Positions 1 to 39,534 of a stretch of DNA of 39,534 nucleotides are shown here, piece by piece (the first letter of the stretch is position 1; every line of letters begins with the position of its first letter). Source of the stretch: an uncultured Deinococcales bacterium (GTDB lineage Bacteria > Deinococcota > Deinococci > Deinococcales > JAAFIG01); assembly GCA_964244895.1 (NCBI GenBank), contig CAXTKV010000017.1:1-39534 (forward strand), given 5' to 3'. The position numbers were made by a program, and so were the translations under genes. Under the pieces are notes generated by a model that had not been told where the DNA came from, did not search any database, and was given only the letters and a program-made list of their open reading frames with translations.

Positions 1-48
1 CGCCTTACAAGCGAGTGGTCGTTGGTTCAAATCCGACATCGCCCACCA
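1..48 (+). tRNA. tRNA-Val(TAC), 5' part outside window
   Basis: Anticodon loop CTTACAA (anticodon TAC at 6-8), T-arm GTTGG-TTCAAAT-CCGAC, acceptor strand ending in encoded CCA at 46-48. Confidence 0.93.
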
Positions 49-52
49 ACAG

Positions 53-84
53 AAACGTGGTCAAGGGTCGCGGCCTTGACCACG
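53..84 (-). terminator. Hairpin between tRNA and convergent antitoxin gene; likely intrinsic terminator
   Basis: CGTGGTCAAGG (56-66) / CCTTGACCACG (74-84) perfect 11-bp stem, followed by TTTCTGTT on the minus strand. Confidence 0.6.
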
Positions 85-324
85 CGTTCGTGCGGCGCGG
101 TCTTGCCTTACGGCCAGCAAACCGCTGACCATCGAACGCAATTCCTCGAGTTCGGTTTGTAATCGTTGGTACTCGCTGACGCCCATCATCACGGCAGCGG
201 CGCGCCCGTTGTGCGTGACGACCACGGGCGATCCACCCTCGCGCAACCGTTTCAAGATTGGTGAGGCGTTCGCACGGAAATCCGAAAGCGGCACGATATC
301 TTGCTCGAGATTCAAAGTTGGCAT
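61..324 (-). CDS. Phd/YefM family antitoxin (no toxin gene adjacent)
   Basis: IVPLSDFRAN...PVVVTHNGRAAAVMMGVSEYQ is a typical Phd/YefM N-terminus; start placed at ATG 324, 6 nt after -10 TACAGT. Confidence 0.85.
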   Translation of the reverse strand: MPTLNLEQDIVPLSDFRANASPILKRLREGGSPVVVTHNGRAAAVMMGVSEYQRLQTELEELRSMVSGLLAVRQDRAARTRGQGRDP

Positions 325-359
325 ATGTAAACTGTACATGATTCAAGACAGGATTTCAG
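325..359 (-). promoter_or_regulatory. Leaderless promoter of the antitoxin gene with overlapping TGTACA palindrome (candidate operator)
   Basis: Minus strand CTGAAA-17 nt-TACAGT-6 nt-ATG; TGTACA at 333-338 overlaps the -10. Confidence 0.55.
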
Positions 360-451
360 ACAATCTTGAGAATGCTGTCCCAGACTCAAAATCCCTCCAA
401 CTGTTCAATGACGTTCTCAACGTCAGTTATCATCCTCAAAAGGAGGATGTG

Positions 452-946
452 ATGACCCAACCCTCAAGTTCAATCGAGCCTTTCACCGAAGAGGTTTTTG
501 TAAGCGACTCCGAGCGGAGACTTTTTAATGAGAAATCTATTGAGATCAGTAAAACCTTATTTAAAGAGGTTTTAAGCGAAACTTCTAAGAAGAATTACAA
601 CATTCTCCTTGGGGCTTCACTTGCTTGCGTTTTGCTTTGGCTAGGTGTGAAGATAGAAAATATTTCTGCCCTCGCCGCACTTAAGGAACTCAGCATACCC
701 GTAATTAGGTATGCCGCAGCTCTATCAACCATTTATTTCTTACTTATTTTTTTAATTTCTATAACACAAGATTGGCAGATTTATAGTTATGAAATTTCGA
801 AAAATCGAGAAGAACTTAGTGCCTTCATGACCACATTAAGTAATCGAGCTATTGAACTTGCCTTAAAAAACTTAAGACTGCACAGAGAAATTAAAATGTT
901 TTTCCTAAATGAAATCGGAAAACTTGATAAAAATGTGAAAATTTGA
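452..946 (+). CDS. AT-rich hypothetical membrane protein, N-terminal fragment (2 predicted TM helices)
   Basis: Strong RBS AAGGAGG before ATG 452; hydrophobic segments ILLGASLACVLLWLGV and YAAALSTIYFLLIFLISI; probably one gene with 943..1359. Confidence 0.65.
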   Translation: MTQPSSSIEPFTEEVFVSDSERRLFNEKSIEISKTLFKEVLSETSKKNYNILLGASLACVLLWLGVKIENISALAALKELSIPVIRYAAALSTIYFLLIFLISITQDWQIYSYEISKNREELSAFMTTLSNRAIELALKNLRLHREIKMFFLNEIGKLDKNVKI

Positions 947-1359
947 CAAAATTAAAATATTTACTAACTAACGATGATTTGAAAGAAAATGATGAGTATA
1001 AGGATTTGCAAAAGGAAGTTATCGAACGCATAGTAAATAAATATGGTGAAGGTTATCTAGGAAAATTGAATCATCCTGATTTGTTGCATAGTCTAGTGGA
1101 CGAATTAGAGCTTTTATTAGATGAAGGAGTTGAGGAAAATAAGAAGCTTCGAGCGGAAATGGATTTACGTATGAATGAATTTGAAGATAATAGCAAGAAT
1201 TCTGAAGTTCTAAGAAATAGATACGAAAGGCTTAAAAAGACTTTTGTCACTCACCAAAATCTCTCGAAGACAAAGTACGTACTTGAAATCTTATTTCCGG
1301 TTGCAGTCGGTATTTTTGCAGTTACTGTTTCAATTCTTAATATATCTCCGCTAAAATAG
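943..1359 (+). CDS. AT-rich hypothetical protein, C-terminal fragment (charged coiled-coil-like region plus C-terminal TM helix)
   Basis: TTG start with no RBS, overlapping the upstream stop in the -1 frame; C-terminal VLEILFPVAVGIFAVTVSIL. Confidence 0.6.
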   Translation: MTKLKYLLTNDDLKENDEYKDLQKEVIERIVNKYGEGYLGKLNHPDLLHSLVDELELLLDEGVEENKKLRAEMDLRMNEFEDNSKNSEVLRNRYERLKKTFVTHQNLSKTKYVLEILFPVAVGIFAVTVSILNISPLK

Positions 1360-1399
1360 CGAGGCTTTTCAACGATCTAACGTTTAAAAACATGTTCTT

Positions 1400-1456
1400 T
1401 CGAGAACACCGTCCCGCATGTATATTTTGATTCGCGTCCTGCGCGGTGTTCTCGAG
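1400..1456. repeat. Family A palindromic repeat (degenerate two-arm copy)
   Basis: TCGAGAACACCGTC...GCGGTGTTCTCGAG. Confidence 0.75.
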
Positions 1457-1467
1457 TTTCAACAACG

Positions 1468-1495
1468 AAAAAGGGGCGGCAAATGCCGCCCCTTT
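1468..1495 (-). terminator. Intrinsic terminator of rpoBC (possibly bidirectional)
   Basis: AAAGGGGCGGC-AAAT-GCCGCCCCTTT stem with U-tract on the minus strand, just past the rpoC stop. Confidence 0.9.
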
Positions 1496-1510
1496 AACAT
1501 CTTCTAAACC

Positions 1511-6094
<4,584 letters not shown>

Positions 6095-6128
6095 TCATAA
6101 CTCCTTTGGGAGTGTGGTGCTAAAAATT

Positions 6129-6250
6129 GCGTGCCGGACGGTTTTCTCGAGAGAAACAAAACTTGCGTCCTTTGGGAAACACCGTCCAGGACGGTGTTTC
6201 TCGAGATTCAAGGAAATGCGTCTAGGACGGTGTTTCCTTGAATCTCGAGA
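6129..6250. repeat. Family A repeat cluster in the rpoB-rpoC spacer
   Basis: Half arm 6129-6151, palindrome GAAACACCGTCCAGGACGGTGTTTC 6176-6200, perfect 18-bp inverted repeat 6199-6216/6233-6250. Confidence 0.85.
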
Positions 6251-6257
6251 CGTGCCA

Positions 6258-9638
<3,381 letters not shown>

Positions 9639-9841
9639 CCCATCCCGGCGTACCGGGTCGGCCCCACGCGGGGACCCGAGAGAACTGTGCTAGGCTTCCT
9701 CAACGCCAATACGCCGTCGCTGATCTGCCGAGCCCGTCAGTGCCCATCGTGGTTGACGTGACAAGGCCGGAGGGGAAACCTCCGGTGTAAACCTCAAAAA
9801 AGCTGCGCCCCAGAAAACTTGAAAAAGGGCATCAGTCGTCT

Positions 9842-9869
9842 AGTTTACTGGCCTGAGCGCCCCTGTCAA
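9842..9869 (-). promoter_or_regulatory. sigma70-type promoter of rpoBC
   Basis: Minus strand TTGACA-16 nt-TAAACT about 200 nt upstream of rpoB. Confidence 0.75.
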
Positions 9870-9994
9870 GGGTTGTGGCTTACGTTTCATGGGCTTGAAG
9901 ATTCGGCTCGAGGATGGACAAGTGAAGCGGGACTGCTCGAGAAATCCGTCTGAGACGATGCGGCTCGGGTATTCTCGTCCGCTTGGTTCATAAC

Positions 9995-10040
9995 AACACC
10001 GTCCAGCACGCATTTCTTGACTCGCGTGCTGGACGGTGTT
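9995..10040. repeat. Family A palindromic repeat (two-arm)
   Basis: AACACCGTCCAGCACGC / GCGTGCTGGACGGTGTT perfect 17-bp inverted repeat with AT-rich loop. Confidence 0.85.
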
Positions 10041-11767: not shown

Positions 11768-11830
11768 GAGAACACCGTCCAGGACGGTGTTCTCGAACAA
11801 TCAAAAATGCCGTGCTGGACGGTCTTCTCG
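11768..11830. repeat. Family A repeat (collapsed palindrome plus half arm)
   Basis: GAGAACACCGTCCAGGACGGTGTTCTC then CGTGCTGGACGGTCTTCTCG. Confidence 0.85.
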
Positions 11831-13610: not shown

Positions 13611-13616
13611 CTAAAT

Positions 13617-15615: not shown

Positions 15616-16839
15616 GTGAAGACAACCTCCCAAACCGTGATCCTGAGCGTCGCGGTCGCGCTGGGCTGGGTCGTGACCGCCCAGAACGCGCCGACCGCAC
15701 CGACCACGGTCAACAACGATGCCGCCCAGGACGCCGCGCGACCTTCGCTGGCGCTGGATCGAAACGGTCACGCGGTGATCGGCTTGATCGAGCGCACGGA
15801 CGGCGTGTACCGCGCCTTCGTCAAGAAATGGAACGCCGGAAAATGGACGACGCTGGGCGGTGCGCTCAACCTGAACCCGAGCTTCAACGCCTTCAACATC
15901 GCGGTCAAACTCGACGGGACGGACGCGCCCGTGGCGGTCTGGACGGAGCGCAGCAACACCAACGACGGCAAGGCGCAGGGCCCCGGCAAGGTCTACGCGG
16001 CGCGCTGGGATGGCAAGGCGTGGCGCACCTTCGGGGAATCCCCGACCAAGAAGCTCGCCTCGGCCTCGGACTTGCCGAAGCTCGCGCTGGACGCGAAAGG
16101 CTACCCGGTGATCGGCTGGAGCGAGCTCTCGCCGGATTTCAACGCCGACAGTTACTTCGTGGATCGCTGGGCGGGCGACGCCTGGCAGCCCGTGGACACG
16201 GGATCGTTGAGTTCCGATGTCAGCGGCTCCTCGAGATCGCGCGACCTGGCGGTCGCGTCAACTGGCCAACCGATCCTGGCCTGGAGCGTGCAACCTTACG
16301 TCGCGGGTCGGGGCGCGCTCGATTTCAACGTCTTCGTCGGCCCGTGGAACCAGGGCAGATGGGCGGCGCTCGGCGGGGTTTCGTTGAACGCCAACCCGAA
16401 CGCCTACGCCGGTTCGCCTTCTCTCGCGCTCGACGCGCAGGATCGGCCTGTGGTCGCGTTCAAGGAAGCCAGATCTGGCTTCGACGTGTTCGTCAAACGC
16501 TGGACGGGCAACGCCTGGCAGGCCGTGGGCGGCAGCGTCAACGACGAAACCGGACTGGCCGACGGCCCCGCGCTGGCGCTGGACGCTCAGGGCAACCCGA
16601 CGGTCGCGTGGCTCGAGAACGCCGGTGCGGTCGGCGTGTTCGTCAAACGCTGGGACGGCCAGAACTGGGTCGCGGTCGGTGGACGGCTCAACGCCGACCC
16701 GAAAGCCTACGCGCTGGAATGCGCGATGGCGCTCGATGGTCAGGGTCAACCCACCGTCGCCTGGAGCGAAGAAATCAGCAAGGACGTGCGACGCGTTTAC
16801 CTGCGGCGCTGGAACAAGAAAGCCTGGGTCGGGCTGTAG
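15616..16839 (+). CDS. Secreted repeat protein, probable 7-bladed beta-propeller
   Basis: Signal peptide; seven repeats of PxLALDxxGxPxVAW-like units with RWxGxxWxxxGG; GTG 7 nt after CAGAAT. Confidence 0.8.
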   Translation: MKTTSQTVILSVAVALGWVVTAQNAPTAPTTVNNDAAQDAARPSLALDRNGHAVIGLIERTDGVYRAFVKKWNAGKWTTLGGALNLNPSFNAFNIAVKLDGTDAPVAVWTERSNTNDGKAQGPGKVYAARWDGKAWRTFGESPTKKLASASDLPKLALDAKGYPVIGWSELSPDFNADSYFVDRWAGDAWQPVDTGSLSSDVSGSSRSRDLAVASTGQPILAWSVQPYVAGRGALDFNVFVGPWNQGRWAALGGVSLNANPNAYAGSPSLALDAQDRPVVAFKEARSGFDVFVKRWTGNAWQAVGGSVNDETGLADGPALALDAQGNPTVAWLENAGAVGVFVKRWDGQNWVAVGGRLNADPKAYALECAMALDGQGQPTVAWSEEISKDVRRVYLRRWNKKAWVGL

Positions 16840-16862: not shown

Positions 16863-16917
16863 GGGAACACCGTCCGGGACGTATCATTTAATTTGCGTCC
16901 CAGACGGTGTTCTCGAG
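16863..16917. repeat. Family A repeat (two-arm)
   Basis: GAACACCGTCCGGGACG...CGTCCCAGACGGTGTTCTCGAG. Confidence 0.85.
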
Positions 16918-25935: not shown

Positions 25936-27621
25936 ATGCGACGAAGCCAACTGCACGTCCCGACGCTGCGCGAGAACCCCACGGAAGCCGAAACCACCTC
26001 GCACCGATTGCTGCTGCGGGCGGGTTTCGTGCGTCCGCTCTCGAGCGGAATTTACTCGATGCTGCCGCTCGGGTTGCGCGTCAAACGCAAGATTGAGAAC
26101 ATCATCCGCGACGAAATGAACGCCATCGGCGCGCAGGAGTTCGAGCTTTCCAACCTTCAGCCCGCCGAAATCTGGAAGGAATCCGGGCGCTGGAACGCGA
26201 TCGGCACGGAGATGCTGCGCCTGCGCGACCGTTCCGGACGGGAAATGTGCTTAGGGATGACGCACGAGGAGATCTTCACGGCGCTGGCTCGGGAACTGCG
26301 TTCGTACCGCGAACTGCCCACGATCTGGTACCAGATCGTCAAGAAATTCCGCGACGAACCGCGACCCAAGGGCGGCATGATCCGGCTGCGCGAATTCACC
26401 ATGAAGGACTCGTACAGCTTCGCGCTGGACGACGCCGGACTGGACGAGCAATTCCGCGCGCACGAGGGCGCGTACCGCCGAATCTTCGAGCGTTGCGGCC
26501 TGGAAATCGTGGTGGCGCGCGCCGACAACGGCATGATGGGCGGCACGGATTCGCTGGAATTCGTGGCGCTCTTGGACGCGGGCGAGGACTGGGTGGCGGT
26601 CGCACCGTCCGGTTGGGCGGCGAACCTCGAGGTCGCCACGGGTCTGCTCGAGCCCGTGTCTGACGAAGGTGTGGGCACGACCGTCCAGGAGTTCGCCACG
26701 CCGGGAATCCTGACGATTGATGCGTTGGAAAAATTCGGCGTGCCCGCCGTGCGCCAGATGAAAACCCTGATCTACGTCGCGCAGGGCGAACCGGTGGTGA
26801 TCGTGCTGCGCGGTGATCACCAACTCAACGAAAGCAAGCTCGCGCACGCGCTGGGCACGACCGACATCCGGGCCGCCGAACCGGAGGAAGCCTATGAACT
26901 GATGGGCGCGAACTTCGGCAGCCTCGGGCCAGTGCCCACGAACGGAGGCGGCCTTAAGGCGCGAATCATCGCGGATCGGGCTTTAGAGGGTCGCCAGGGC
27001 ATGGTCAGCGGCGCGACCAGGGACGGCTACCACCTTTCAGGACTCGAGCCTGGGCGGGATTTCCAGTGCCGTTTCGCGGATGTTCGCACCGTCAAAAGCG
27101 GTGAGATGTCACCGGACGGTTCGGGCGCTCTTCGGATCGAACGCGGGCTGGAACTGGGCCACATCTTCAAGCTCGGCACGCGCTACGCCAGCGCGTTGGG
27201 TGCGAACGTGACCGGCAAGGACGGTAAGAGCGCAACCCTGGTGATGGGTTCTTACGGCATCGGCGTGGAACGTTTGATGGCCGCCATCGCGGAACGTTAC
27301 GCGGACGAGCGCGGTCTGATCTGGCCTCGGGCGGTGTCCCCGTTCGACGTGACCGTGCTGGAACTCGGTGATACGGGCGGTGCTGCGCTGCGCCTCCACG
27401 ACGAATTGCAGGCCGCAGGTCTGGACGCGCTGCTGGACGACCGCGACGAGCGCGCCGGGATGAAATTCACCGAATTCGAGTTGATCGGCGTACCCGTCGC
27501 CGTGGTCGTGGGTTCTCGAGGCCTGGAACGCGGCCTGGTCGAGTTGCGCGAACGCGCGACCGGCATCAACACGGAAATCAAGCTTGAGGAGATCCGGCAG
27601 GTGTTGCTCGAGATGCGCTGA
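25936..27621 (+). CDS. proS: Proline--tRNA ligase, bacterial (prokaryotic) type with INS editing domain
   Basis: SHRLLLRAGF, KFRDEPRP, REFTMKDSYSF, INS motifs KTL and GSLGP, ELGHIFKLGTRY, MGSYGIGVERL; RBS AAGGAG. Confidence 0.97.
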   Translation: MRRSQLHVPTLRENPTEAETTSHRLLLRAGFVRPLSSGIYSMLPLGLRVKRKIENIIRDEMNAIGAQEFELSNLQPAEIWKESGRWNAIGTEMLRLRDRSGREMCLGMTHEEIFTALARELRSYRELPTIWYQIVKKFRDEPRPKGGMIRLREFTMKDSYSFALDDAGLDEQFRAHEGAYRRIFERCGLEIVVARADNGMMGGTDSLEFVALLDAGEDWVAVAPSGWAANLEVATGLLEPVSDEGVGTTVQEFATPGILTIDALEKFGVPAVRQMKTLIYVAQGEPVVIVLRGDHQLNESKLAHALGTTDIRAAEPEEAYELMGANFGSLGPVPTNGGGLKARIIADRALEGRQGMVSGATRDGYHLSGLEPGRDFQCRFADVRTVKSGEMSPDGSGALRIERGLELGHIFKLGTRYASALGANVTGKDGKSATLVMGSYGIGVERLMAAIAERYADERGLIWPRAVSPFDVTVLELGDTGGAALRLHDELQAAGLDALLDDRDERAGMKFTEFELIGVPVAVVVGSRGLERGLVELRERATGINTEIKLEEIRQVLLEMR

Positions 27622-28794: not shown

Positions 28795-29666
28795 GGGTGC
28801 GTACCGCCAGGAATCGTCTGACCGGGTTGCGCCTCGTCCGCCCAGACTTTGATCAGGCTCAGTTGGGTCTGCCCGTAGGTCGTGCTGAAAGCCGTGTCCG
28901 CCGCGTCTCGTCCGATGGCAATGATCACGCGGCCCGTGCGCGGTTTGTTGTGGCGCGCGTCGAAGGTGCGCCACGCGCCGCCCAGGAAAACCTCGAACCA
29001 GGCGTGAAAATCCATCGGCAGACCGTCCAGGGGCACGCCGATGTCCGGCAGGTAACCGCAGACGTAACGCGCGGGGATGTTCAGCGCGCGGCAGAAGCTC
29101 ACGCCCAGGTGCGCGAAATCGCGGCACACGCCGCGTCTCGAGAAGTACGCGTCCAACGCGGTCGAACTCGCGTTGCTGCCCGCGCCGTAGGTGATGTTGG
29201 CGTGCAACCAGTCGCAGACGGCCTGCACGCGCGCCCAACCGTCCGGCACGTTTCCGAACATCGCCCAGGCGTCCTGAATGAACAAATCAGATGGGCAGTA
29301 GCGGCTGGGCAGGGTGTAGACGATCGCCTCGTCCGGCAAGTCCTGCACGAGCGCGCCCGGCAATTCCGGCAGAACCGGATCGAGTCCGGCTGACACGCTC
29401 ACGATCGCGTCGTGCAGCACCTCGAGCTTGCCCGCGCGGGCGAACACGCGCCAGATCGTGTTGCCGTGCGCATCGGTGTACGCGCGGAACCCGTCCGGCT
29501 CGAGCGCGGGCGTGAAGGCGCGCGCCATCTCGAGGATGCGCTGACCGGGACGGTCTTTGGGTTCCAGCACGAACATCAGCGGCGCATCGAAGGGCAGATC
29601 GTAAGTCAGTTTGCATCCGACCCGCACGCGGCGCGTCCCACCGGAAAAAACGCCGTCGTCGTTCAT
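28791..29666 (-). CDS. Transglutaminase-like protein
   Basis: PSRYCPSD, GVCRDFAH, DFHAWFE, FDAR, GRDAAD; ATG 29666 6 nt after TACACT. Confidence 0.92.
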   Translation of the reverse strand: MNDDGVFSGGTRRVRVGCKLTYDLPFDAPLMFVLEPKDRPGQRILEMARAFTPALEPDGFRAYTDAHGNTIWRVFARAGKLEVLHDAIVSVSAGLDPVLPELPGALVQDLPDEAIVYTLPSRYCPSDLFIQDAWAMFGNVPDGWARVQAVCDWLHANITYGAGSNASSTALDAYFSRRGVCRDFAHLGVSFCRALNIPARYVCGYLPDIGVPLDGLPMDFHAWFEVFLGGAWRTFDARHNKPRTGRVIIAIGRDAADTAFSTTYGQTQLSLIKVWADEAQPGQTIPGGTHP

Positions 29667-29731
29667 CGTTGGAGTGTACCCGTTCCGGGCGCAGGGTTGA
29701 TGCAAATTTGCTCGAGCGAACGGAGGGGAAA

Positions 29732-29793
29732 TAAAGAGCACCGTCCTGGACGGTGCTCTTTAAGATCAAAAATTTGTGTCCTGGACGGTCTTC
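29732..29793. repeat. Family A repeat (collapsed palindrome plus half arm)
   Basis: TAAAGAGCACCGTCCTGGACGGTGCTCTTTA then GTCCTGGACGGTCTTC. Confidence 0.85.
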
Positions 29794-31204
29794 AGTGCGT
29801 CTGGAACTGGATCACGTTCGGAGCCCACGCCAGCACTTCGACGGCCTCGCCGTAGAGGTCGTACTCGTCGGCATCCTCGATTCTGACGCGCACGATGTCA
29901 CCGATCTTGATCGCGCCCGCCAATACGCCCGCCGCGACGTAGACGCTGCCGTCGATGCCCGGCGCATCACCTTTGGTGCGCCCGACCAGCTTGGTTCCGG
30001 GCGCGTCGCCGTCGTCGTCGTTGTACTCGTCCACGATCACGTCCAGCACGCGACCTATTTTTGCGGCGTTCTTCTCGAGGCTGATGGTCTGCTGCAAGGC
30101 CATCAGGCGCTCCAAGCGTTCGGCTTTGACCTCTTCGGTGACGTGCCCCTCCAAGCTGTTCGCGTCCGCGCCCTCGACCTCGGAGTACGTGAACGCCCCG
30201 ACCCGATCCAGACGCGCTTGCGCCAGAAAATCCAGCAGCAACTGGAAATCTTCCTCGGTTTCACCTGGAAAACCGACGATGAAGGTGGATCGCAACGTGA
30301 TTTCCGGGCAGATCTCGCGCCAACGGCGGATGGTGTCCAACTGCTTTCCGGCTCCGGGGCGGCGCATCAGCTTCAGGATTCTGGGGCTGGCGTGCTGCAA
30401 CGGCACGTCCAGGTACGGCAAGATTTTCCCGTCCGCCATCAACTGCACAATTTTTTCCACGTGCGGGTACGGGTAGACGTAATGCAAACGCACCCACGCG
30501 CCCAACTCGCCCAGTTTGGTGGTCAGATCGACCAGGTGCGCCTGGACTTGCTCGCCCTGGAATTCGGATTCGCGGTGGCGCACGTCCACACCGTAGGCGC
30601 TCGAATCCTGCGCGATCACCAGCAACTCCTTGACGCCCCCGGAGACGAGCCGGTAGGCCTCGTAAAGGAGTTCCCCGGCGTCGCGGCTGACCTGCAAGCC
30701 GCGCAGCTTCGGGATGATGCAAAAAGAGCAGGTGTGGTTGCAACCCTCCGCGATCTTCAGGTACGCGTAATGCTTCGGCGTCAACTTGATGCCCGTCACG
30801 GGCAGGAGGCTGGTGAAGGGGTTCTCGTCGGGCGGGATCAGTTCGTGCAACGCGCCCATCACGCCCGTCACGTCGCCGGGGCCGGTCACGCTCGAGACGT
30901 TCGGGTGGCGCGACATGATCGTCTCTGGGCGCTCACCCAGGCAACCCGTGACGATCACCTTGCCGGTGTGCTCCAGGGCTTCACCGATGGACTGGAGCGA
31001 TTCTTCGATGGCGGGCGTGATGAACCCGCAGGTGTTGACGATCACGACCTCCGCGTCCTGGTAGGTCGGCGCGATCTCGTACCCTTCGGAGCGAATCTGC
31101 GTCAGGATGCGCTCGGAATCCACCAGCGCCTTCGGGCAACCCAGGCTGACGAACCCGACCTTGCGGGGCGCAGCCACGACATTTTGATCAATGGTGGTAC
31201 TCAA
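29792..31204 (-). CDS. rimO: Ribosomal protein S12 methylthiotransferase
   Basis: [18 protein letters not shown], radical [21 protein letters not shown]-terminal TRAM; TTG 31204 follows GGAGG (alternative ATG 31225); TATAAT at 31253-31258. Confidence 0.95.
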
Positions 31205-31449
31205 CGCGGTTCCTCCGATGCCCATTGGCGATGCCTAACGGGGCGACCACGGATTATAGCGGGAAATCTCAAGTCCGCCCGACTCGAGCCGCTTCCTCGA
31301 GCAGGGCGACCGCAAAGTCCGGTTTCTCCCGCTCCCCTGATGGGCGTGGGTCAGGGCGAGGGGGCGAACGCGCGGCCTCTCCCATAAAAGCACAACCTTG
31401 CGGTTGCGCGATGGCTCAGCTCAACTGCAGCGCTCGAGGTCGCCGACAC

Positions 31450-31508
31450 GAGAACACCGTCCAGCACGGTGTCCTCTGATGCTCGAGAATGCCGTCCCGG
31501 ACGGTCTT
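31450..31508. repeat. Family A repeat (two tandem collapsed copies)
   Basis: GAGAACACCGTCCAGCACGGTGTCCTC and CTCGAGAATGCCGTCCCGGACGGTCT. Confidence 0.8.
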
Positions 31509-32034
31509 AGCGTTCCAGCGCGCGCCCGAAGAAGGCGCGCATTTTGTTGGAAGTCGGGAACACCCGCTCGAACTCGAGCGCCCAACGGGCGAAATCGCGC
31601 CGGATGGGTTTGTCCTTCGCGTCGAAGACCTGCTCAGACCTGCGGAACTCGCGTCCGCGCGGATCGAAATACAGGCGGCGTTGAACGTGCACCGGGCCGG
31701 GATCGGCGTAGAACGTGCCCAGGGAAGTGTGAATGAACGCCAGCGTACCGTCGCGGCGGAAGCAGTAGCGCACGGTGATGGCGTTGTCTTCGCTGGCGGT
31801 TTGAAGGGTCGCCACGCGGATCGTGCGACCCTCGAACCAGACGGACGCGAACTCGCCGCGCTCGAGGGTATCGCCGCGCTTCCAGCTGCCATCGTAGGGG
31901 CGCTCGAGCGCCACCGGCGCAGTGCGCGCCGCAAAGCTTCGGCAGGCGGCGTAGGCGGCGCGCACCTCGTCGAGTGGGCTGATGGCCTGACCTGAACTCA
32001 GCAGGAGCGCGATCAAGACCCCGAGCATTCTCAT
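31507..32034 (-). CDS. Hypothetical secreted protein
   Basis: Signal peptide MRMLGVLIALLLSSGQA; ATG 6 nt after TAGACT; beta-rich YCFRRDGTLAF. Confidence 0.7.
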   Translation of the reverse strand: MRMLGVLIALLLSSGQAISPLDEVRAAYAACRSFAARTAPVALERPYDGSWKRGDTLERGEFASVWFEGRTIRVATLQTASEDNAITVRYCFRRDGTLAFIHTSLGTFYADPGPVHVQRRLYFDPRGREFRRSEQVFDAKDKPIRRDFARWALEFERVFPTSNKMRAFFGRALER

Positions 32035-32252
32035 GCCCAAAGTCTAGCCGCAAGCGGTGCTTGAGGCGCAATGCGCGAACAACACATCAGCCGGGCATCA
32101 GGAACGATCAGCAGAATGAGCGAATTAAAAGAATTCGGAGCCAAAAAAGAATCCAGGGGAATTCACCGTGATAGCGATCCTTTCTTCAGCGCAGACGGGC
32201 TATTTTTCCACCGACACAGGGCGCACTGAACCCAGAATTTCGCCATCAGACA

Positions 32253-32281
32253 TTGACATCCGGGCATTCCCGTTGCATAAC
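32253..32281 (+). promoter_or_regulatory. sigma70-type leaderless promoter of the ECF sigma gene
   Basis: TTGACA-17 nt-CATAAC-6 nt-GTG. Confidence 0.6.
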
Positions 32282-32287
32282 GGAAGC

Positions 32288-32839
32288 GTGACGTTGCTCG
32301 AGGAGCAGGATGACGTGACGCTGCTCGGGATCATCCGTCGCAACGATCACGGTGGAGCTGAGGCGGCGCTCGAAGCGCTGTACCGCAGGCATTCCCGGAA
32401 CGTCTACTCGCTGGCTCGCCGGATCGTGCGCGACGAAGCGGCGACCGAAGAAATCGTCCAGGACGCATTCATGAAGCTCTGGAAGAACGCCAGCGGCTTC
32501 GATGCCGCGCGCGGTAGCGTCACGACGTGGCTCTTGACGATCACGCACCACGCCAGCGTGGATCACCTGCGGCGCGTCAGCAAACCCGTGTCCTACCCCG
32601 AAGAACCCATTCTGGAAGCCATTGCTGACCCCAAATTGAACGATCAGGTCGAAACCGTGATGCTGGACGCGGCCCTGGGTGCGCTCAGCGCCGACGAGCG
32701 CAGCCTGATCGAACTGGCGTACTACGAGGGCCTATCGCACGCCCAGATCGCTACTCGCACGGGTCTGCCACTCGGTACGGTCAAAACCCGGATTCGGGTG
32801 GCGTTGACCCGCCTGCGCGACCGCCTCGAACCCGCCTGA
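32288..32839 (+). CDS. ECF RNA polymerase sigma factor (SigK-like)
   Basis: EEIVQDAFMKLW, FDAARGSVTTWL, LAYYEGLSHAQIA...LPLGTVKTRIR. Confidence 0.93.
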   Translation: MTLLEEQDDVTLLGIIRRNDHGGAEAALEALYRRHSRNVYSLARRIVRDEAATEEIVQDAFMKLWKNASGFDAARGSVTTWLLTITHHASVDHLRRVSKPVSYPEEPILEAIADPKLNDQVETVMLDAALGALSADERSLIELAYYEGLSHAQIATRTGLPLGTVKTRIRVALTRLRDRLEPA

Positions 32840-32942
32840 GCGAAGGCGCTCGAGGATCGTCACGGCGTCTCGGGTCTCGCGGCCCGGTTTGGGCGGACGG
32901 CGCTCGAGGCCAATCTTCGCTGAAGAAAGATCGCCGAATAAA

Positions 32943-32968
32943 GAGCGCGCCGTCCTGGACGGCGCTTC
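32943..32968. repeat. Family A repeat (collapsed variant)
   Basis: GCGCCGTCCTGGACGGCGC. Confidence 0.7.
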
Positions 32969-33068
32969 CGGCGATGCCAGACAATGGGATCAGCGTTACA
33001 CACATTCTGACCCGGCGGGTCATCTTGGGAATCGGGCGACAGGTGGTCACACCGCCGAGGAGGGCGCG

Positions 33069-34428
33069 ATGAACGCGACGCAGTCCGTCAACGCTGAGGG
33101 TGATCAGGCACGCGACCAGCGCGCCCTTTCGACCTCGAGATCGATCCTCGAGATGCTGACCGGCCCGGTTTCCGGCAGGGATTTTGCGGTGCGCTGGTGG
33201 GACGGTTCGCGGGACGAACCCGGTGGCGCGCCGCGGTTCACGATTCGTATGAACCGACCCGGCGCGCTCAGACGGATGCTGCTGCCACCGACCGAACTGA
33301 ACTTGGCGGAAGCTTTCATCCGCCAGGACTTCGACGTGGACGGCGATCTGGAGCTGGCGCTCGGGTTGGACGCGACCATGCGCGCGGTCTCGAGCCCGGC
33401 GAACGTCGCGCGGCTCGTGCCGATGCTTCGCTCCTTGCCGACCGACGATCTACCGCCGGAGGCGAAGCTGACCCGTCCCAAACCCGGCCTGAGCGGACAC
33501 GTCCACTCGAAAACCCAGGACGCCAACGACGTGCGCTCTCACTACGATCTGGGCAACGATTTCTACGCGCTGTTTCTGGATTCGCGCATGGTCTACAGTT
33601 GCGCGTACTTCCAGACGAGCGCGGAAGACCTGGACGCCGCACAAGCCGCCAAGCTGGAACTGACCTGCCGCAAATTGCGCCTTCAACCCGGCCAGCACTT
33701 GCTGGACATCGGTTGCGGTTGGGGCGGGCTGGTCATGCACGCCGCGCAGCACCACGGCGCGCGCGACCGGCATCACGCTCTCCGAGCGCCAGGCGGAACT
33801 GGCTCGAGCGCGCGTCCGAGACGCCGGGCTCGAGGATCGGGTCAGCATCGAGGTGCGCGATTACCGCGATCTGCCCGAGAACGCGCGCTTCGACAGGATC
33901 GTCAGCGTCGGCATGGTCGAACACGTCGGGCGCGCGAATATTCGCGCCTACTTCGAGACGGCCTATCGGCTGCTTCAGCCCGGTGGCGCGTTCTTGTGCC
34001 ACGGCATCGTCGAGGCCAGAACCACGCTCGCGCCCGTGCCCAGGCTGATCGAACGCCTGACCTGGCGGCGCAACTCGTTCCTGCACCACTACATCTTTCC
34101 CGGCGGCGAGGTGCTCTACCCCAGCGAATTGCTGTCCGCCGCCGAAAGCGCCGGGTTTGAACCGCGCGACCTGGAAAACCTGCGCGAACATTACGCCCTG
34201 ACCGCCCGCCACTGGTCGCACCGGCTCGAGGCGCGCAAAGACGACGCGATCCGTCTGGTCGGTGAACCCACCTACCGCGCGTATCGGCTGTACCTGACGG
34301 GCGTGATCCGCACCTTCCAGACGCGCGTCAACGGGCTGACGCAGATGCTGCTCTCGAAGCCCACGGATAGCGGCTCGAGCGGCCTGCCGTTGTCTCGGGC
34401 GGACTGGTACGCGACCGGGATCGGGTGA
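33069..34428 (+). pseudogene. cfa: Cyclopropane-fatty-acyl-phospholipid synthase family methyltransferase, frameshifted at ~33757-33765
   Basis: HYDLGNDFY, MVYSCAYF, LLDIGCGWGG in the first frame; TGITLS...DYRD...FDRIVSVGMVEHVG...YIFPGG in the shifted frame; restoring one GC unit in the GC tract rejoins them. Confidence 0.85.
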
Positions 34429-34431
34429 ACA

Positions 34432-34483
34432 GGGACACCGTCCGGGACGCAGTACCAAATTTGCGTCCCGGACGGTGTTCTCG
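34432..34483. repeat. Family A repeat (two-arm)
   Basis: GACACCGTCCGGGACGCA...TGCGTCCCGGACGGTGTTCTCG. Confidence 0.85.
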
Positions 34484-34525
34484 GGTGGTATCGGCTCAGG
34501 GACGCTACCCTGTCATACTGAACGC

Positions 34526-35254
34526 GTGAATGTGCCCCAGGCCAGACGCGCCATCAATGATGCGTCCAGGATCGCGGTGCTGACGGGTGCAGGCATCAGC
34601 GCCCCGAGCGGCATCCCGACCTTCCGCGAGGCGCAGACGGGTTTGTGGGCGCGGTTCAGCCCCGAAGAACTGGCGAGCCCGAAGGCGTATGCGCGGGACG
34701 CGAGGCTCGTCTGGGACTGGTACGCGTGGCGCTACCGACTGTGCGAGAAGGCCCTACCGAACCGGGCGCACGCGATCCTGGTCGAACTCGAGGCGCGAGT
34801 CGGGGATGGTTTCTTGCTCGCGACGCAGAACGTGGACGGTTTGCACGCTCGAGCCGGATCAGAGCGCCTAGTCGAACTCCACGGCAACATCAGCCGAGCC
34901 CGCTGCGAAGGCTGCGGCGCGCGCCAACCGTTGCCGCCGCCCGATACTTTCGTGCCACCCCCGACCTGCGCGTGCGGCTCGAGGATGCGCCCGGATGTCG
35001 TGTGGTTCGGTGAAAACCTGCCCTCGGACGCGCTCGAGGCCGCCTGGGATGCGTTTTGTGCCTGCGATACCGCGCTCGTGATCGGCACCAGCGGCCTGGT
35101 CGAACCCGCCGCTAGCCTGGGCCGCGTGGCGCTCGATCGCGGCGCGTTCCTGATCGAGATCAACCCGGTTGAAACGCCGTTCTCGGGCCTGGCGGATTGT
35201 TCACTGCGTCTGGGCGCAATCGAAGGGCTCGAGGCGTTGGTTGGTCAGGCGTAA
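34526..35254 (+). CDS. cobB: NAD-dependent protein deacylase (sirtuin)
   Basis: GAGISAPSGIPTFR, TQNVDGLH, ELHG, Zn cysteines, RPDVVWFGE, GTSG; GTG 34526 6 nt after CATACT. Confidence 0.93.
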   Translation: MNVPQARRAINDASRIAVLTGAGISAPSGIPTFREAQTGLWARFSPEELASPKAYARDARLVWDWYAWRYRLCEKALPNRAHAILVELEARVGDGFLLATQNVDGLHARAGSERLVELHGNISRARCEGCGARQPLPPPDTFVPPPTCACGSRMRPDVVWFGENLPSDALEAAWDAFCACDTALVIGTSGLVEPAASLGRVALDRGAFLIEINPVETPFSGLADCSLRLGAIEGLEALVGQA

Positions 35255-35478
35255 GCCTCGAGGTTCGAGCCGCAAGCCTCGAGCCGCAAGCGACATCTTC
35301 TCGGATCAGAAACACCGTCTAGCACGCAGTTTCCTGAAAAAGAAGAACACCGTTCTTGCTCATAAAATAGTACCTTGCGGGTTATTCGCGCTCCTGGACG
35401 GTGTTCTCGAGAAACCATCCAGGGCTTTTCGCTTTTGCCTCATGCCTTGCGGCTCGCGGCTTGCGGCTCAAAGCTTGC
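35253..35478. repeat. Inverted GAGCCGCAAG short tandem repeats flanking family A arms (35309-35411)
   Basis: CGAGCCGCAAGC twice at the left; CTTGCGGCTC twice at the right; GAAACACCGTCTAGCACG and CCTGGACGGTGTTCTCGAG inside. Confidence 0.7.
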
Positions 35479-35481
35479 GAC

Positions 35482-36492
35482 CTATCCCGGCCCGACCCAC
35501 ACGACCGCGCCCGAGCTCAGCTTGAAGCGGTCCGCCAGTTCGAGGGGCAGCACCAGGGATTCGTCCGGTGTGTCGTCCGCCGCGATGGGCAGCACCAACC
35601 CGCGCCGCGTCAGGTCGATGCGGAACTCCATGCGCGTGATCTGCCGCCCCAGGATTTCCTCCCAGTCGCGCACGATCCGGGCGGGCAACCTGGATCGCTT
35701 GTCGGTCGCGTCGGTCGCGCGAGAAACGCTGATCGGGATGAACGCCACGCCGTGCGCGGTCGGGGCGACGTGCGACCCGGACGGGTGAGACGGGTTGGTC
35801 GGGTGCGTCGGGTTGGTGGCGCGCATCGGGGCGGGCGGTTCGGGCTTGTCGATGTCAACAGCCTCGAACTCGAAATCAATCTTGAGGCTTTCGGTGGTCT
35901 CGAAAGGGTCGATCTGGGTTTCGGTGGGTTTGGTGACGTTCAGGCTGCGCGAGGGTTGCTGCGGGGTTTTGCTGGCGCCCAGGCTGACGTTGAAGATGCT
36001 GCCTTTGAGCATCGTCTCGAGCGCCTCGAGCTTGGTGGCGTCCGACCCGGCAGCGGATTTCACGCTCCTGGGTGCTGGCGAATCGGCGGGGCGCGAGGTG
36101 CGCCCGAGCGACTGCGCGTTCCGTCCGGCATCGAGGGATGCGCTGCCGGTTTTGCGTTTGATCGTGACTTCGCTGCGCAGCGCGGGCGGGCGCGTGTCGG
36201 CCTTGTTCATGGCGCTCATCAGCGTCCACTCGGCGGCGCCCTGAATGGTGCGCTCCGTGGTTTGAACGCCCGGTTTGAACTCGAATTTGCCGCTCTGCTC
36301 GAGCATTAGCGCGGCCAGCGCGTCCACGCCCTGTTCGGTGTCGTACTGGGCGTGGACCAGCTTGCCAGATTCGAGGTACGCGATGAAGTGCCGCCCGGTC
36401 GGGTGCGCGATCTCGAGCGCGCCCGTGGCTCGGCTGGAACCGAGCACCTGCAACAGCGATTCGACGTTGAAATCCGATAAATTCCCGCGCAT
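35482..36492 (-). CDS. DUF4388 (PATAN-like) domain protein
   Basis: MRGNLSDFNVESLLQVL...TGALEI...YLESGKLVHA...GKFEF; GAGGAG upstream of ATG 36492. Confidence 0.85.
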   Translation of the reverse strand: MRGNLSDFNVESLLQVLGSSRATGALEIAHPTGRHFIAYLESGKLVHAQYDTEQGVDALAALMLEQSGKFEFKPGVQTTERTIQGAAEWTLMSAMNKADTRPPALRSEVTIKRKTGSASLDAGRNAQSLGRTSRPADSPAPRSVKSAAGSDATKLEALETMLKGSIFNVSLGASKTPQQPSRSLNVTKPTETQIDPFETTESLKIDFEFEAVDIDKPEPPAPMRATNPTHPTNPSHPSGSHVAPTAHGVAFIPISVSRATDATDKRSRLPARIVRDWEEILGRQITRMEFRIDLTRRGLVLPIAADDTPDESLVLPLELADRFKLSSGAVVWVGPG

Positions 36493-36766
36493 GGTTCGTG
36501 TCTCCTCGGGGCGTGCGCGCCCCGTCCGGCTCGAGTCTCGTAGGGTTCGTGGCTCGCGTGGTGGCGCGAGACTCGAAAATAAGTCTAGGTTTCCGCGCGG
36601 ATTTCGGGCGGTGATTTCCGGCACGACCCCGGACGCCAATTGAAATCCGGATACCCGTTGCGGTGGTCATTTTTCGCGTTCAGGGCGTGCTGCAGGGCGT
36701 ACAGTGAACCCAGTTTCGCTCGAGAGAATCCTCTCCCTCGAGCCCAGATGATCCTCGGAGGCTTTC

Positions 36767-37537
36767 GTGATCGAAGTGCGCGGTTTTTCCAAACGGTTCG
36801 GACGCGTCGAGGCCGTCAAACCCCTCGACCTGACGGTGCAACCCGGCCAGATTTTCGGCCTGCTGGGGCCGAACGGCGCGGGCAAGACGACCACGATTCG
36901 CGCCATGACCGGCCTGACCCGGCCCAGCACGGGCACGGTGCGCGTGGCCGGTTTCGATGTCTGGCGCGAGCCCGTCAAGGCCAAGGCCAGCTTCGGCTAC
37001 ATCCCGGATCGCCCGTACCTGTACGGCAAATTGACCGCCCGCGAGTTGCTGCGCTTCATCGCAGGGTTGCACAAGCTGGACGCCAGAACGGAAATCGAGC
37101 GCTGGCTCGAGTTTTTCGCCTTGACCGATTTCGGCAACGAGTTGATTGAAACGTTTTCCCACGGCATGAAGCAGAAACTCACGATCATCGCCGCGATGCT
37201 GCCCGAACCGCCCGTGCTGATCGTGGACGAACCGATGGTCGGATTGGACCCTCGAGCGGCTAAACAGGCTCGGGAGCTGTTCGCCAATTACGCCGCCAAA
37301 GGCAAGACGGTGCTGCTGACCACGCACTCGATGCCCGTGGCGGAGGCCGTCGCGCACCGCATCGCAGTGCTGGATCGCGGTCGGATTTTGGGCGAGGGCA
37401 CGCTGGACGAACTGCGCGCGCAGACCCAGACCGACGCCGGCGGCGTCGAAGGCATGAGCCTCGAGCGGATCTTCTTCAAGCTGGTCGAGGAAGAAGAAGC
37501 CCTGAAGGAGGCCGAGCGTGACCGCGTCGCCGCGTAA
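36767..37537 (+). CDS. ABC transporter ATP-binding protein
   Basis: GPNGAGKTT, FSHGMKQK signature, IVDEPMVGLD; RBS GGAGG. Confidence 0.96.
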   Translation: MIEVRGFSKRFGRVEAVKPLDLTVQPGQIFGLLGPNGAGKTTTIRAMTGLTRPSTGTVRVAGFDVWREPVKAKASFGYIPDRPYLYGKLTARELLRFIAGLHKLDARTEIERWLEFFALTDFGNELIETFSHGMKQKLTIIAAMLPEPPVLIVDEPMVGLDPRAAKQARELFANYAAKGKTVLLTTHSMPVAEAVAHRIAVLDRGRILGEGTLDELRAQTQTDAGGVEGMSLERIFFKLVEEEEALKEAERDRVAA

Positions 37538-37585
37538 AACACCGCGTGGGACGCGTATTCAAACTCGCGTCCCGGACGGTATTCC
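37538..37585. repeat. Family A repeat (two-arm, degenerate)
   Basis: AACACCGCGTGGGACGCG...CGCGTCCCGGACGGTATTC. Confidence 0.75.
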
Positions 37586-37586
37586 C

Positions 37587-37744
37587 GTAGGGGCGCGATT
37601 CATCGCGCCCTGCCCTACCCGATTCCTCGAGCGAAACCGCGACGACGTGTCCACGCGCGGGCAACCACATCGCATACAGCGTGCTGAAGCACGACGTTCG
37701 CCCCTACAGGCTGTTCTTGTAGGGGCAGGGCTTGTCCCTGCCCT
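37587..37744. repeat. Cluster of GTAG-type REPs
   Basis: GTAGGGGCGCGATTCATCGCGCCC (37587), TTCGCCCCTAC (to 37707), GTAGGGGCAGGGCTTGTCCCTGCCCT (37719). Confidence 0.75.
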
Positions 37745-37819
37745 CCCCTCGAGACGCCTCTTTCATCGAAATCCCGATCACCGCCTTCTCGAGATTCCCG
37801 TTCCGTCTGAGGTGCGACC

Positions 37820-39534
37820 GTGGCGCTGACCCTACCCACACCGCGCCCGCAACGCCATTCCGGGTCGTTGCTGCGGCTGAAATTGCGCGCGCTCTACAAC
37901 GCCTTCGCCAGGGGTTCAAAGGTCGGTTACGTGCTGGTCGCGCTGTTCGTGGCGCTGGTCGCGTGGGCGGAATTCTCCGGCACGATCCGCGCCATGACCT
38001 TTTTGTGCGAGTACGGTCGGCTGCCGTTCCTGGAAAAATGTTCCCTGGTCGGGCGCAGCGTGGCGCAACGCACCCTGGAAATCGGCTTGATCGTGCTGGC
38101 CTCCGGCGTGACCTTCAGCGCGATCACGACCGCGATCACGACGCTGTACGCGTCTGATGACCTGAATTTCTTGCTGTCCCAGCCGATTCAGGCCTGGCGC
38201 GTGTTCGCGGTCAAATTGATGGAAACCTACCAGAACGCGGCGGGCGTCCCGGCCCTGTTGACGCTGCCGATCATCGCGGGATTGGGCGCGTACTGGAACG
38301 CGCCCGCCTGGTATTACCCGTTGGCGGCGCTGGCCTCGTTGATCGTGTACGCGCTGCCGGTCGGTCTGGGCGCGGCCACGGCGGTCGTGCTGATGCGTTT
38401 CGCGCCCGCCGGACGCGTGCGCGAGGTGGCCACCGGTCTGGGCGTGGTGCTGAGCGCCAGCTTAGTGTACTTCATCCGCGCGGCCAGGCCGGAGGATTTG
38501 CTCAAGCAGTTGCAGGATCCGAACGCCTTCGACGCGCTATTGGCGCAGTTCGCCGCGCCGTCCAACCCGTTCCTGCCGCCATCGTGGGCGGCGCGCGTGA
38601 TCTGGGATGGTGCGCGCGGAGACTTCGCGTACTCGTTCTTCACGCTGGCGGGGCTGGCGTTGGTCGTGCTGGCGGCGGCGGGCTGGTTGGCGGCCAGGGC
38701 GTACCAGGAAGGCTGGGTGCGCGGCCTCGAGAGTTCCCGCGTCAAGCTGGATCGAACCCCGCGCGACGCGAGCGCGGTGGAGCGTTTCTTCTCGAGATTC
38801 GGCCCGAGCGGCGTGCTGATCGTCAAAGACGCGCGCTTGTTGTTCCGCGACGCGACCCAGTGGTCGCAGCTCCTGATCCTGGTCGCGCTGGGCGGCGTGT
38901 ACCTGGTCAGCGTGCGCTCCTTTCCGGTGCAGGAAGCGTTGTTTCGCAACGTGCTGGGCTTTTTGACGCTGGCTTTTCAGGGCTTCGTGATCGCGGGCGT
39001 CGGTATTCGCATGGCCTTCCCGAGCGTTTCATTGGAAGGCGCGGGCTACTGGTTGCTGCGCACCAGCCCGATGAGCGCGCGTTCGATTGTCATGGCCAAA
39101 TACTGGGGCGCGCTGCCCGCCACGCTGGTGCTGGCGGTCTTGATGGGTTTTGTCAGCGCCCGCATCCTGGAACTGGCCAGCGTGATGGTCTTCTTGAGCG
39201 TGCTGGTGTCCGTCTCGAGCGCGCTCTCGATCACGGCGCTGGGCGTGGGGTTGGGTGCGGCCCTGCCGCGCTTCAAGCACGACAACCCCGCCGAGGTCGC
39301 CGTCTCGCCGGGTGGGTTGCTGTACATGCTCTTATCGCTGGTGTACTCAAGCCTGCTGGTGCTGATCACCGCGCGCCCCGCGTACCTCTCGATCACGCAA
39401 CCCGGCGCGTACCCCGGCCTGACGTACTTCTCGAGCATTGAGGGTTGGTTGGTGCTGGCGCTGGTGGCGATCGTGACGGTCGTGGGGACGGTCGCGCCGC
39501 TGTGGTTCGGCTGGAATCGGCTCGATCAGCACGA
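37820..39534 (+). CDS. ABC-2 type exporter permease, 3' end outside window (missing from the ORF track)
   Basis: GAGGTG RBS, GTG 37820; open frame to the window end with many TM helices and DLNFLLSQP, KDARLLFRDATQWSQ, FPSVSLEGAGYWLLRTSP. Confidence 0.88.
   Translation, partial: MALTLPTPRPQRHSGSLLRLKLRALYNAFARGSKVGYVLVALFVALVAWAEFSGTIRAMTFLCEYGRLPFLEKCSLVGRSVAQRTLEIGLIVLASGVTFSAITTAITTLYASDDLNFLLSQPIQAWRVFAVKLMETYQNAAGVPALLTLPIIAGLGAYWNAPAWYYPLAALASLIVYALPVGLGAATAVVLMRFAPAGRVREVATGLGVVLSASLVYFIRAARPEDLLKQLQDPNAFDALLAQFAAPSNPFLPPSWAARVIWDGARGDFAYSFFTLAGLALVVLAAAGWLAARAYQEGWVRGLESSRVKLDRTPRDASAVERFFSRFGPSGVLIVKDARLLFRDATQWSQLLILVALGGVYLVSVRSFPVQEALFRNVLGFLTLAFQGFVIAGVGIRMAFPSVSLEGAGYWLLRTSPMSARSIVMAKYWGALPATLVLAVLMGFVSARILELASVMVFLSVLVSVSSALSITALGVGLGAALPRFKHDNPAEVAVSPGGLLYMLLSLVYSSLLVLITARPAYLSITQPGAYPGLTYFSSIEGWLVLALVAIVTVVGTVAPLWFGWNRLDQH

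Follow-up and report, generated by a model that had tools for sequence, protein, structure and literature searches.

A highly iterated CTCGAG palindrome in Deinococcota, present in excess in every reading frame and conserved beyond its codons

The palindrome CTCGAG is the commonest hexamer in the genome of an uncultured Deinococcales bacterium (assembly GCA_964244895.1), and a real excess of this exact word is confirmed here. The genome was approached through a stretch of 39,534 bp (contig CAXTKV010000017.1, hereafter the window), for which a sequence-only reading had proposed a dispersed word resembling the highly iterated palindrome HIP1 of cyanobacteria. We propose, with a probability of about 40%, that CTCGAG is a highly iterated palindrome which is both kept and created by a molecular drive, exerted inside the cell by a putative sequence-specific factor through biased repair or gene conversion. 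Taken more broadly, a drive by repair, recombination or uptake is the likely class of cause.

The source genome (5.12 Mb in 328 contigs, 91% complete, the window being its contig C17) carries 21,883 copies of CTCGAG, or 4,270 per Mb. This is 9.8-fold the expectation of an order-2 Markov model, with the next hexamer at 3.8-fold, and 19.9-fold when the sites are masked. All of the 40 largest contigs contain 3.5-4.7 copies per kb. The window is a sample of this genome-wide pattern and has 156 exact copies, one per 253 bp, the first at positions 145-150 and the last at 39430-39435. The sequence-only reading had counted about 150, which was close, against about 13 expected; the latter figure has to be corrected to about 18, since dinucleotide shuffles (n = 100) yielded 17.95 copies on average and 30 at most. 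According to our gene calls, 109 of the sites are spread over 32,654 coding bp (81 in the Leu-Glu frame, 6 in frame 1 and 22 in frame 2) and 47 over 6,880 bp that are intergenic or without a called gene, a class that may contain a few missed genes.

It is the complete hexamer that is enriched. The neighbouring words ATCGAG, GTCGAG and TTCGAG have order-2 ratios of 1.13, 1.04 and 1.54, compared to 9.84 for CTCGAG. The TCGA core, which is the TaqI site, is not enriched as such, and it could be ruled out as the real enriched word as other NTCGAN words occur near expectation. The flanks have no fixed consensus, and flank preferences are weak and inconsistent. The HIP1 octamer GCGATCGC is not among the enriched palindromic octamers of the source genome; those containing CTCGAG lead among the octamers with many copies.

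The excess is not an artefact of coding. Synonymous codons were shuffled within each gene (6 shuffles, applied to 3,508 of 4,445 self-called genes, those with at least 150 codons), and with this null CTCGAG still ranks first among hexamers, with 14,067 observed copies versus 3,302 after shuffling. The Leu-Glu frame accounts for 10,308 versus 2,825 of these (3.6-fold), and the two other frames for 741 versus 57 (13-fold) and 3,018 versus 420 (7.2-fold). This null errs on the conservative side, as the sites themselves are part of the codon pools. A codon-preserving null, split by reading frame, was what the sequence-only reading had itself named as its refutation test, and the excess held in every frame. 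Thus, Leu-Glu codons are not the whole cause, as had been suspected from the sites in other frames and in spacers. The codon contexts quoted for three plus-strand sites of the window were all correct: TCC-TCG-AGA (Ser-Ser-Arg, frame 2) at 16230-16235, TCT-CGA-GGC (Ser-Arg-Gly, frame 1) at 27515-27520 in proS, and TTC-TCG-AGA (frame 2) at 38791-38796. Among the codons said to be forced and rare, AGA (3.2% of Arg), TCT (3.9% of Ser) and CGA (9%) are rare indeed, but TCG is not (28% of Ser). The commonness in spacers was also borne out, with 6.5 copies per kb genome-wide as compared to 3.7 in genes; the spacer sites are in 9.6-11-fold excess over expectation.

A by-product of codon, dipeptide or repeat composition, such as a preference for Leu-Glu or the ends of dispersed repeats, could be invoked for some of these numbers. 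The Leu-Glu frame takes 73% of the coding sites, and CTC GAG encodes 59% of the Leu-Glu pairs in the source genome. In addition, an imperfect palindrome resembling repetitive extragenic palindromes (REP), with the core GACGGTGTT, occurs in about 2,300 copies (2,314 cores) in the genome and in 20 copies in the window (e.g. at 6178-6234, 9995-10040, 11771-11791, 16866-16911 and 35311-35405), often as inverted pairs in spacers. CTCGAG directly follows 292 of the 2,314 cores, and its density is 9.1 per kb near REPs versus 5.6. No RAYT motif was found in the source genome by a simple regular expression. However, REPs had to be rejected as the source of CTCGAG, as the core was seen only twice in the 14 loci (about 230 kb) sampled from relatives that are equally rich, and as spacers retain 6.1 sites per kb after REP masking, about 17-fold over a site-masked Markov model. 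With the 13-fold and 7-fold excess in the other frames and the 10-fold excess in spacers, the compositional explanation is refuted and we give it almost no weight.

The force that enriches the word also alters proteins. Leu-Glu is the most over-represented dipeptide in the source genome (2.12), while Glu-Leu is at 0.99 and Leu-Glu in 14 control loci from outside the Deinococcota is at 1.04. In RpoC, the Leu-Glu ratio is 1.7-2.2 in all 11 sequences of the family and 1.0-1.6 in 30 others. Amino acid changes coincide with the site in alignments, for example KAFADK versus KALEAK in RpoC of genus g4. In the window, rpoC (1511-6094, minus strand) has 13 sites (10, 1 and 2 by frame) and rpoB (6258-9638, minus strand) has 9.

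The rpoC gene was also the basis for the tree and for comparison across genomes. Its product matches over the full length the 1,524-residue beta' chains of structures such as 1iw7 and 1l9u, which are Thermus enzymes (2,170 bits, others reaching at most 1,334), and the 16S sequence, judged by eye, looks deinococcal. A scan of named genomes with proS gave no match from the Deinococcota. On a quick RpoC tree, the family of the source genome (f1; 19 genomes, of which G006 is a single-contig assembly while the others are not isolate-like in completeness) adjoins family f3 (support 83). From traits that include the species numbers and the TaqI system in g9, we take f3 with its genus g7 to be Deinococcus, g9 to be Thermus, g13, g18 and g19 to be the Meiothermus group and f2 to be the Trueperaceae.

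We counted CTCGAG in 301 genomes of the phylum, one of which (G265) is unpublished, with no result resting on it alone. All 19 genomes of family f1 are rich, with about 4,300-6,800 copies per Mb (about 4,600-6,800 in the 18 relatives, for which sizes were rounded), and rich genomes carry 12,000-35,000 copies each. Sampled f1 loci of 46-58% GC have about 5 copies per kb, an enrichment that reaches 40-fold against an order-1 model, and the density is similar over the 46-63% GC covered by the sampled relatives. Outside this family the values per Mb are 9-270 in g7 (100 genomes), 630-1,560 in g9 (31 genomes) and 1,400-3,500 in g13, g18 and g19 (29 genomes), and family f2 is mixed. In family f3, G196 has 3,570 copies per Mb, G253 has 7,010 and G197 has 297. 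The latter two belong to the same genus and are sisters on the RpoC tree (support 100), and they differ 24-fold. In sampled DNA, the enrichment is 71-fold in G253 (51.6% GC) versus 1.7-fold in G197 (50.5% GC), 3.4-fold in g9 and 0.8-fold in g7. The excess has thus been switched on and off several times, either by repeated loss or by regain. The reversed word GAGCTC is itself avoided in family f1, so that CTCGAG/GAGCTC ratios overstate the enrichment.

Mobile DNA is affected as well. The Meiothermus phage MMP17 carries 87 sites in 33 kb (6-fold), a density equal to that of sampled Meiothermus-type chromosomes (2.1-2.5 per kb), and CTCGAG is the top hexamer in the first 50 kb of the Allomeiothermus silvanus plasmid pMESIL01 (3.1-fold). 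A scan of 80 out of at least 126 viral loci turned up no contig tied to family f1. In a plasmid of the haloarchaeon Natrialba magadii there are 116 CTCGAG and 6 GAGCTC in 50 kb (L377:1-50000), a milder excess of 2.3 per kb and 2.1-3.0-fold in which CTCGAG is not the top word.

Along the chromosomes, the sites are arranged as if placed at random. Distances between neighbours are near exponential (mean 234, coefficient of variation 0.96, thus near-Poisson), and no period was detected up to 6 kb, including the range of about 100-3,000 bp, by a method simpler than the one published for HIP1 (peak power 4.7 compared to 3.8-7.1 in 10 random placements). In G006, with 23,515 sites, neither an origin/terminus gradient nor a trend was found, the density being 3.9-5.6 per kb in 20 of 20 samples. 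Random spacing, lack of a period and flat density look more like the filling of free positions than like placed binding sites. This bears on the possibility that ordinary selection maintains CTCGAG as binding site of an abundant protein which organises or protects the chromosome, a self mark. While such selection would be consistent with conservation in place, with the similar density over 46-63% GC and with the host-level density in the phage, it would have to act with very little strength per site, as there is one site per 150-230 bp, and it sits poorly with the 24-fold difference between sister genomes. We consider it unlikely.

DNA poor in sites also exists. AT-rich windows of the source genome (40-44% GC) have only 1-2.5 copies per kb although relatives of 46% GC are no poorer than the others, which suggests that foreign DNA arrives poor and then fills up. 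In the window, the AT-rich islet at 310-1450 (35.6% GC) is devoid of CTCGAG, as had been noted from the sequence, and it is likely recently acquired DNA. Its two open reading frames (209-946 and 943-1359) match no family above the cut-off, the second having a weak match to DUF445. The 16S region of the source genome has no copy either.

Comparison of close relatives showed that the sites are conserved. In genus g5, G008 was compared with three congeners (62, 45 and 21 kb aligned, 93, 90 and 88% identical), and site conservation was 0.885, 0.893 and 0.797 as opposed to 0.707, 0.605 and 0.504 for permuted words. In five genome pairs of genus g4 it was 0.81-0.93 versus 0.44-0.65 for control words. 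These eight pairs come from two genera and are not independent. The codons CTC, GAG, CGA and TCG are each conserved at 0.85-0.99 inside the site and at 0.53-0.82 outside, so that, as judged from these alignments, the sites are conserved beyond their codons. Together with the excess in every frame under the codon-preserving null, this upholds the HIP1-like reading. The force acting on CTCGAG is active now in genera g4 and g5.

Both loss and gain seem to be affected. With an outgroup for polarity, the loss rate is 0.07-0.10 for CTCGAG and 0.18-0.27 for controls. One-off words in g5 are less conserved than the background (0.34-0.51 versus 0.52-0.71), in part by construction, and gains from such words numbered 3 of 33 and 4 of 41 where 0.24 and 0.49 were expected; although the counts are small, gain from near-misses appears to be about ten times faster. 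An excess of gains is also seen for words at a distance of two or more steps. Differences of a single base between site and non-site are mostly transitions (65 of 77) and affect all three symmetric positions. Those of two or more bases make up 34 of 77 and 33 of 58 differences in two g5 pairs (about 29% in controls) and 17 of 50 in the third, and in g4 differences of three or more bases are about as common as single ones. In the source genome, all three transition neighbours of CTCGAG are mildly enriched and none is depleted, which indicates that the word is favoured as a whole.

Random filling, lowered loss at every position, raised gain and the density in the phage are best accommodated by a drive which acts on the whole word inside the cell. 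We envisage a putative factor, presumably a protein, whose action is probably independent of methylation. It would work intracellularly and not at uptake, by binding to the perfect hexamer on the DNA, and mismatches or heteroduplexes would then be resolved in favour of the version bearing CTCGAG. Occasions for such a bias might arise after replication errors or upon recombination between chromosome copies or with incoming DNA. The host-level density in MMP17 fits a force that acts on any DNA in the cell.

Several points weigh against this proposal. No candidate for the factor turned up; tests for NucS, AddAB and Vsr were all negative. Raised gain and lowered loss are equally expected from ordinary selection, and drive and selection cannot be separated by sequence data. 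In the last of three polarised comparisons, one-step gains were not more frequent than expected (1 of 102 versus 0.66), and single-step losses exceed gains in all three comparisons (24:1, 12:3 and 10:4). The three comparisons share genomes, and tree-incongruent sites reveal recombination among lineages, which blurs the polarity of gain and loss. The phage evidence is a single Mu-like genome that may once have been a prophage. Polyploidy of the lineage is assumed from what is known of Deinococcus and Thermus. Finally, three of four Deinococcota methylomes in PMC4752239 show methylation of CTCGAG without a listed cognate nuclease.

The repair and recombination systems that might supply such a bias were searched for individually. 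Creation of sites by Dcm/Vsr very-short-patch repair was rejected, as the source genome has neither a PF00145 match nor a Vsr motif; such repair would also drain one precursor word, and CTTGAG and TTCGAG, at 1.7 and 2.4 times expectation, are not drained. In phage MMP17, an annotated Vsr-like endonuclease adjoins a D12 adenine methylase (L664:26062-27388). MutS and MutL motifs are present in the source genome. Chi, the word of RecBCD/AddAB, is likewise short and self-enriched and might gain a conversion advantage in break repair, but Chi is asymmetric and modestly enriched, and AddAB could be dismissed since PF12705 is absent from the source genome, with weak matches in G006 and G253 and a strong pair in G196 only. 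NucS does not track the enrichment in 74 chosen genomes: strong matches were found in 6 of 8 f1 genomes and in 6 of 10 poor g7 genomes, and none in G253 or most of g13 and g18. As a side observation, the ten CTCGAG-poor f2 genomes that were searched all have NucS, with no strong matches in rich f2 genomes or in those of g13 and g18, an apparent anti-correlation that fails in f1.

Uptake is the closest competitor of an intracellular drive. Competence machinery might prefer CTCGAG-bearing fragments so that such alleles spread by transformation, as with the DNA uptake sequences (DUS) of Neisseriaceae and the uptake signal sequences (USS) of Pasteurellaceae, and as has been proposed for HIP1. By regular expression, the source genome has competence-type motifs, namely two ComEA-like HhH proteins, DprA, two PilT-like ATPases, pilins and one ComEC-like metallo-hydrolase candidate. 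Many differences between site and non-site involve several bases and some are incongruent with the tree, as would be expected for imports, although they are also expected if one-off intermediates are short-lived. According to PMC2817400, DUS and USS accumulate wherever coding allows, double the encoded peptide and are missing from recently acquired DNA, and the doubled Leu-Glu matches this behaviour. HIP1 is described as raising transformation efficiency (10.1101/2024.09.10.611283; PMC13756078). However, DUS and USS are non-palindromic 9-12-mers about ten times fewer in number, for which a receptor and an uptake bias have been demonstrated, while CTCGAG is an exact palindromic 6-mer present at 12,000-35,000 copies per genome. 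Known uptake sequences number about 1,000-2,000 per genome. Deinococcus and Thermus are naturally competent, but g7 and g9, which we take to be these genera, are not or barely enriched. The host-level density of phage MMP17 also speaks against uptake. We regard an uptake signal as possible but less probable than a drive inside the cell.

The sequence-only reading had linked the word to a methyltransferase for CTCGAG or TCGA, and this part of its interpretation found no support in this lineage. Active CTCG(m6A)G methylases without a cognate nuclease are tabulated for Marinithermus hydrothermalis, Meiothermus ruber and M. chliarophilus (PMC4752239, tables S3 and S4); these enzymes (M.Mhy14884I, M.Mru1279II and M.Mch9957IV) concern the same hexamer in the same phylum. 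They invite a methylation-directed ratchet, i.e. Elhai's model (PMC4390886, section 18), in which an orphan CTCGAG methylase together with a MutH-like nickase fixes new sites, the f1 enzyme having been missed, belonging to another class or having been transient. That the source genome is only 91% complete leaves room for this.

Two gamma-class types were found among the relatives that are likely to be the methylases reported for these species. A TaqI-like query (L209 from family f4, homologous to M.TaqI) matches 34 of the 301 genomes (31 of 31 in g9, both of g21 and one of g11), and a second, unrelated one from g13 (L248, with Pfam Eco57I and TaqI_C, presumably PaeR7I/XhoI-like) matches 15. 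Both are patchy, and each was found in 0 of 10 f1 genomes; the second occurs in 5 of 22 g13 genomes although all of g13 is enriched. As neither type turned up in the ten genomes of the rich family, a conserved methylase of the classes covered is not required for enrichment, and as g9 has the TaqI-like enzyme throughout despite little enrichment, TCGA-type methylation is not sufficient. The draft genomes are incomplete, and specificity cannot be read from sequence. The M.TaqI homologs of g9 and g21 (L218-L246) lie at two recurring loci, with the TaqI nuclease in only 9 of 29 loci; 16 of them share a shortened segment after the NPPY motif and may represent an orphan subfamily with altered specificity.

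The source genome encodes five DNA methyltransferases, each linked to a restriction, BREX-like or mobile context. Contig C114 has a beta-class enzyme next to a nuclease-like reading frame in DNA of 42% GC, C6 has a D12 enzyme that adjoins a NotI-family nuclease, and a type I M subunit, a presumably PglX-like protein and a DUF6094 protein are encoded on C122, C139 and C50, respectively. A PF00145 search detected no C5 methyltransferase in this genome, and none of the five has a close homolog in G006 despite its 23,515 sites. Family-wide clustering drew on the matches with DNA, namely 50 of 78 for PF07669, 30 of 65 for PF01555, 30 of 70 for PF00145 and about 44 of 50 for PF02086, while for MT-A70 and other small classes a motif scan was made of the source genome only. 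Within this scope, no methyltransferase common to all of family f1 emerged. Two D12 clusters, each in 7 f1 genomes and one also in G253, were discarded as they are absent from the near-complete G000, G004, G008 and G010; one of them adjoins a nuclease whose plasmid homologs are annotated as SacI family. A 571-residue gamma-class enzyme of G006 escaped the PF07669 search and has no match in the source genome, the one genome compared. A search for the XhoI nuclease family gave 0 of 5, with no control match either. The force active now in g4 and g5 is a further difficulty for the ratchet, which we consider improbable, slightly more so than selection for binding sites.

Under the drive that we favour, the orphan CTCG(m6A)G methylases that occur in some relatives would be a consequence rather than a cause, and may protect thousands of sites from XhoI-type nucleases. 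That CTCGAG is not among the five methylation motifs detected in Allomeiothermus silvanus (PMC4752239, table S4), while its plasmid pMESIL01 is enriched, counts for independence from methylation. The passages on CTCGAG in this source concern origin clusters in Nocardia and not a genome-wide excess in Deinococcota. We found no description of the latter in the literature, most subscription papers being outside the reach of the search.

Other palindromes are avoided in these genomes. The D12 methylase with SacI-type nuclease (L474:3176-5109, homologs in G003, G007, G009, G011, G013, G018 and G253) might be connected with the almost complete lack of GAGCTC (0-30 sites) in most f1 genomes and G253. 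In genera g4 and g5 (L289-L308), GGCC is almost absent (observed/expected 0.00-0.06) and CCGG, and in g5 also GATC, is strongly avoided; seven g5 genomes have a C5 methylase, which an HNH nuclease adjoins in the locus checked. The source genome avoids GC-rich palindromes to an extreme degree (CGGCCG 30 sites, CCCGGG 60, GGGCCC 129, GACGTC 208, GCCGGC 294, also GGWCC) with no C5 methylase found, and the D12 methylase and NotI-family nuclease of C6 may account for CGGCCG.

CTCGAG shares three defining features with HIP1 and the alternate palindromes of cyanobacteria (PMC4390886, PMC5861425, PMC13756078): it is a short palindrome which is hyper-abundant genome-wide, it is enriched in all frames and in non-coding DNA, and its sites are conserved beyond their codons. 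As in cyanobacteria, codons are more conserved inside than outside the word, and the word is lineage-wide with sporadic losses. Two features are lacking, as the richest CTCGAG family has no conserved cognate methylase among the classes searched and no periodicity was detected. CTCGAG is a highly iterated palindrome but is not HIP1: the word is another one (a hexamer) in another phylum, it reaches 4,300-6,800 copies per Mb compared to 300-2,700 for HIP1 (PMC4390886, table 2), its one-off words are less and not more conserved than the background, and the force suffices to double the frequency of a dipeptide.

The reason for the existence of HIP1 has been sought for three decades, and in cyanobacteria the word and its methylases nearly always go together, which makes it hard to tell cause from passenger there. 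CTCGAG is a denser and apparently methylase-free counterpart: it shows the behaviour of HIP1 in a different word, its density is two to three times the highest known for HIP1, and it is uncoupled from the methylase. With Leu-Glu doubled proteome-wide, it is also a clear case of a force at the DNA level that changes protein sequence. Within one order the excess has switched several times, also between two genomes of the same genus and equal GC that are 24-fold apart, and this permits phylogenetic profiling for the causal gene. The Meiothermus group offers cultured, thermophilic relatives with a moderate enrichment, in which direct tests can be made. We tentatively suggest, with somewhat less confidence than we give to the drive itself, that Deinococcota carry a methylation-independent system, which can be gained and lost and which writes and guards one hexamer. 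It would be a new type of sequence-directed drive, independent of HIP1 though possibly of the same nature, and its gene might be found by comparing G253 (7,000 per Mb) with G197 (300 per Mb). If this is true, such a system rewrites codons and protein sequence in these bacteria, even in RNA polymerase.

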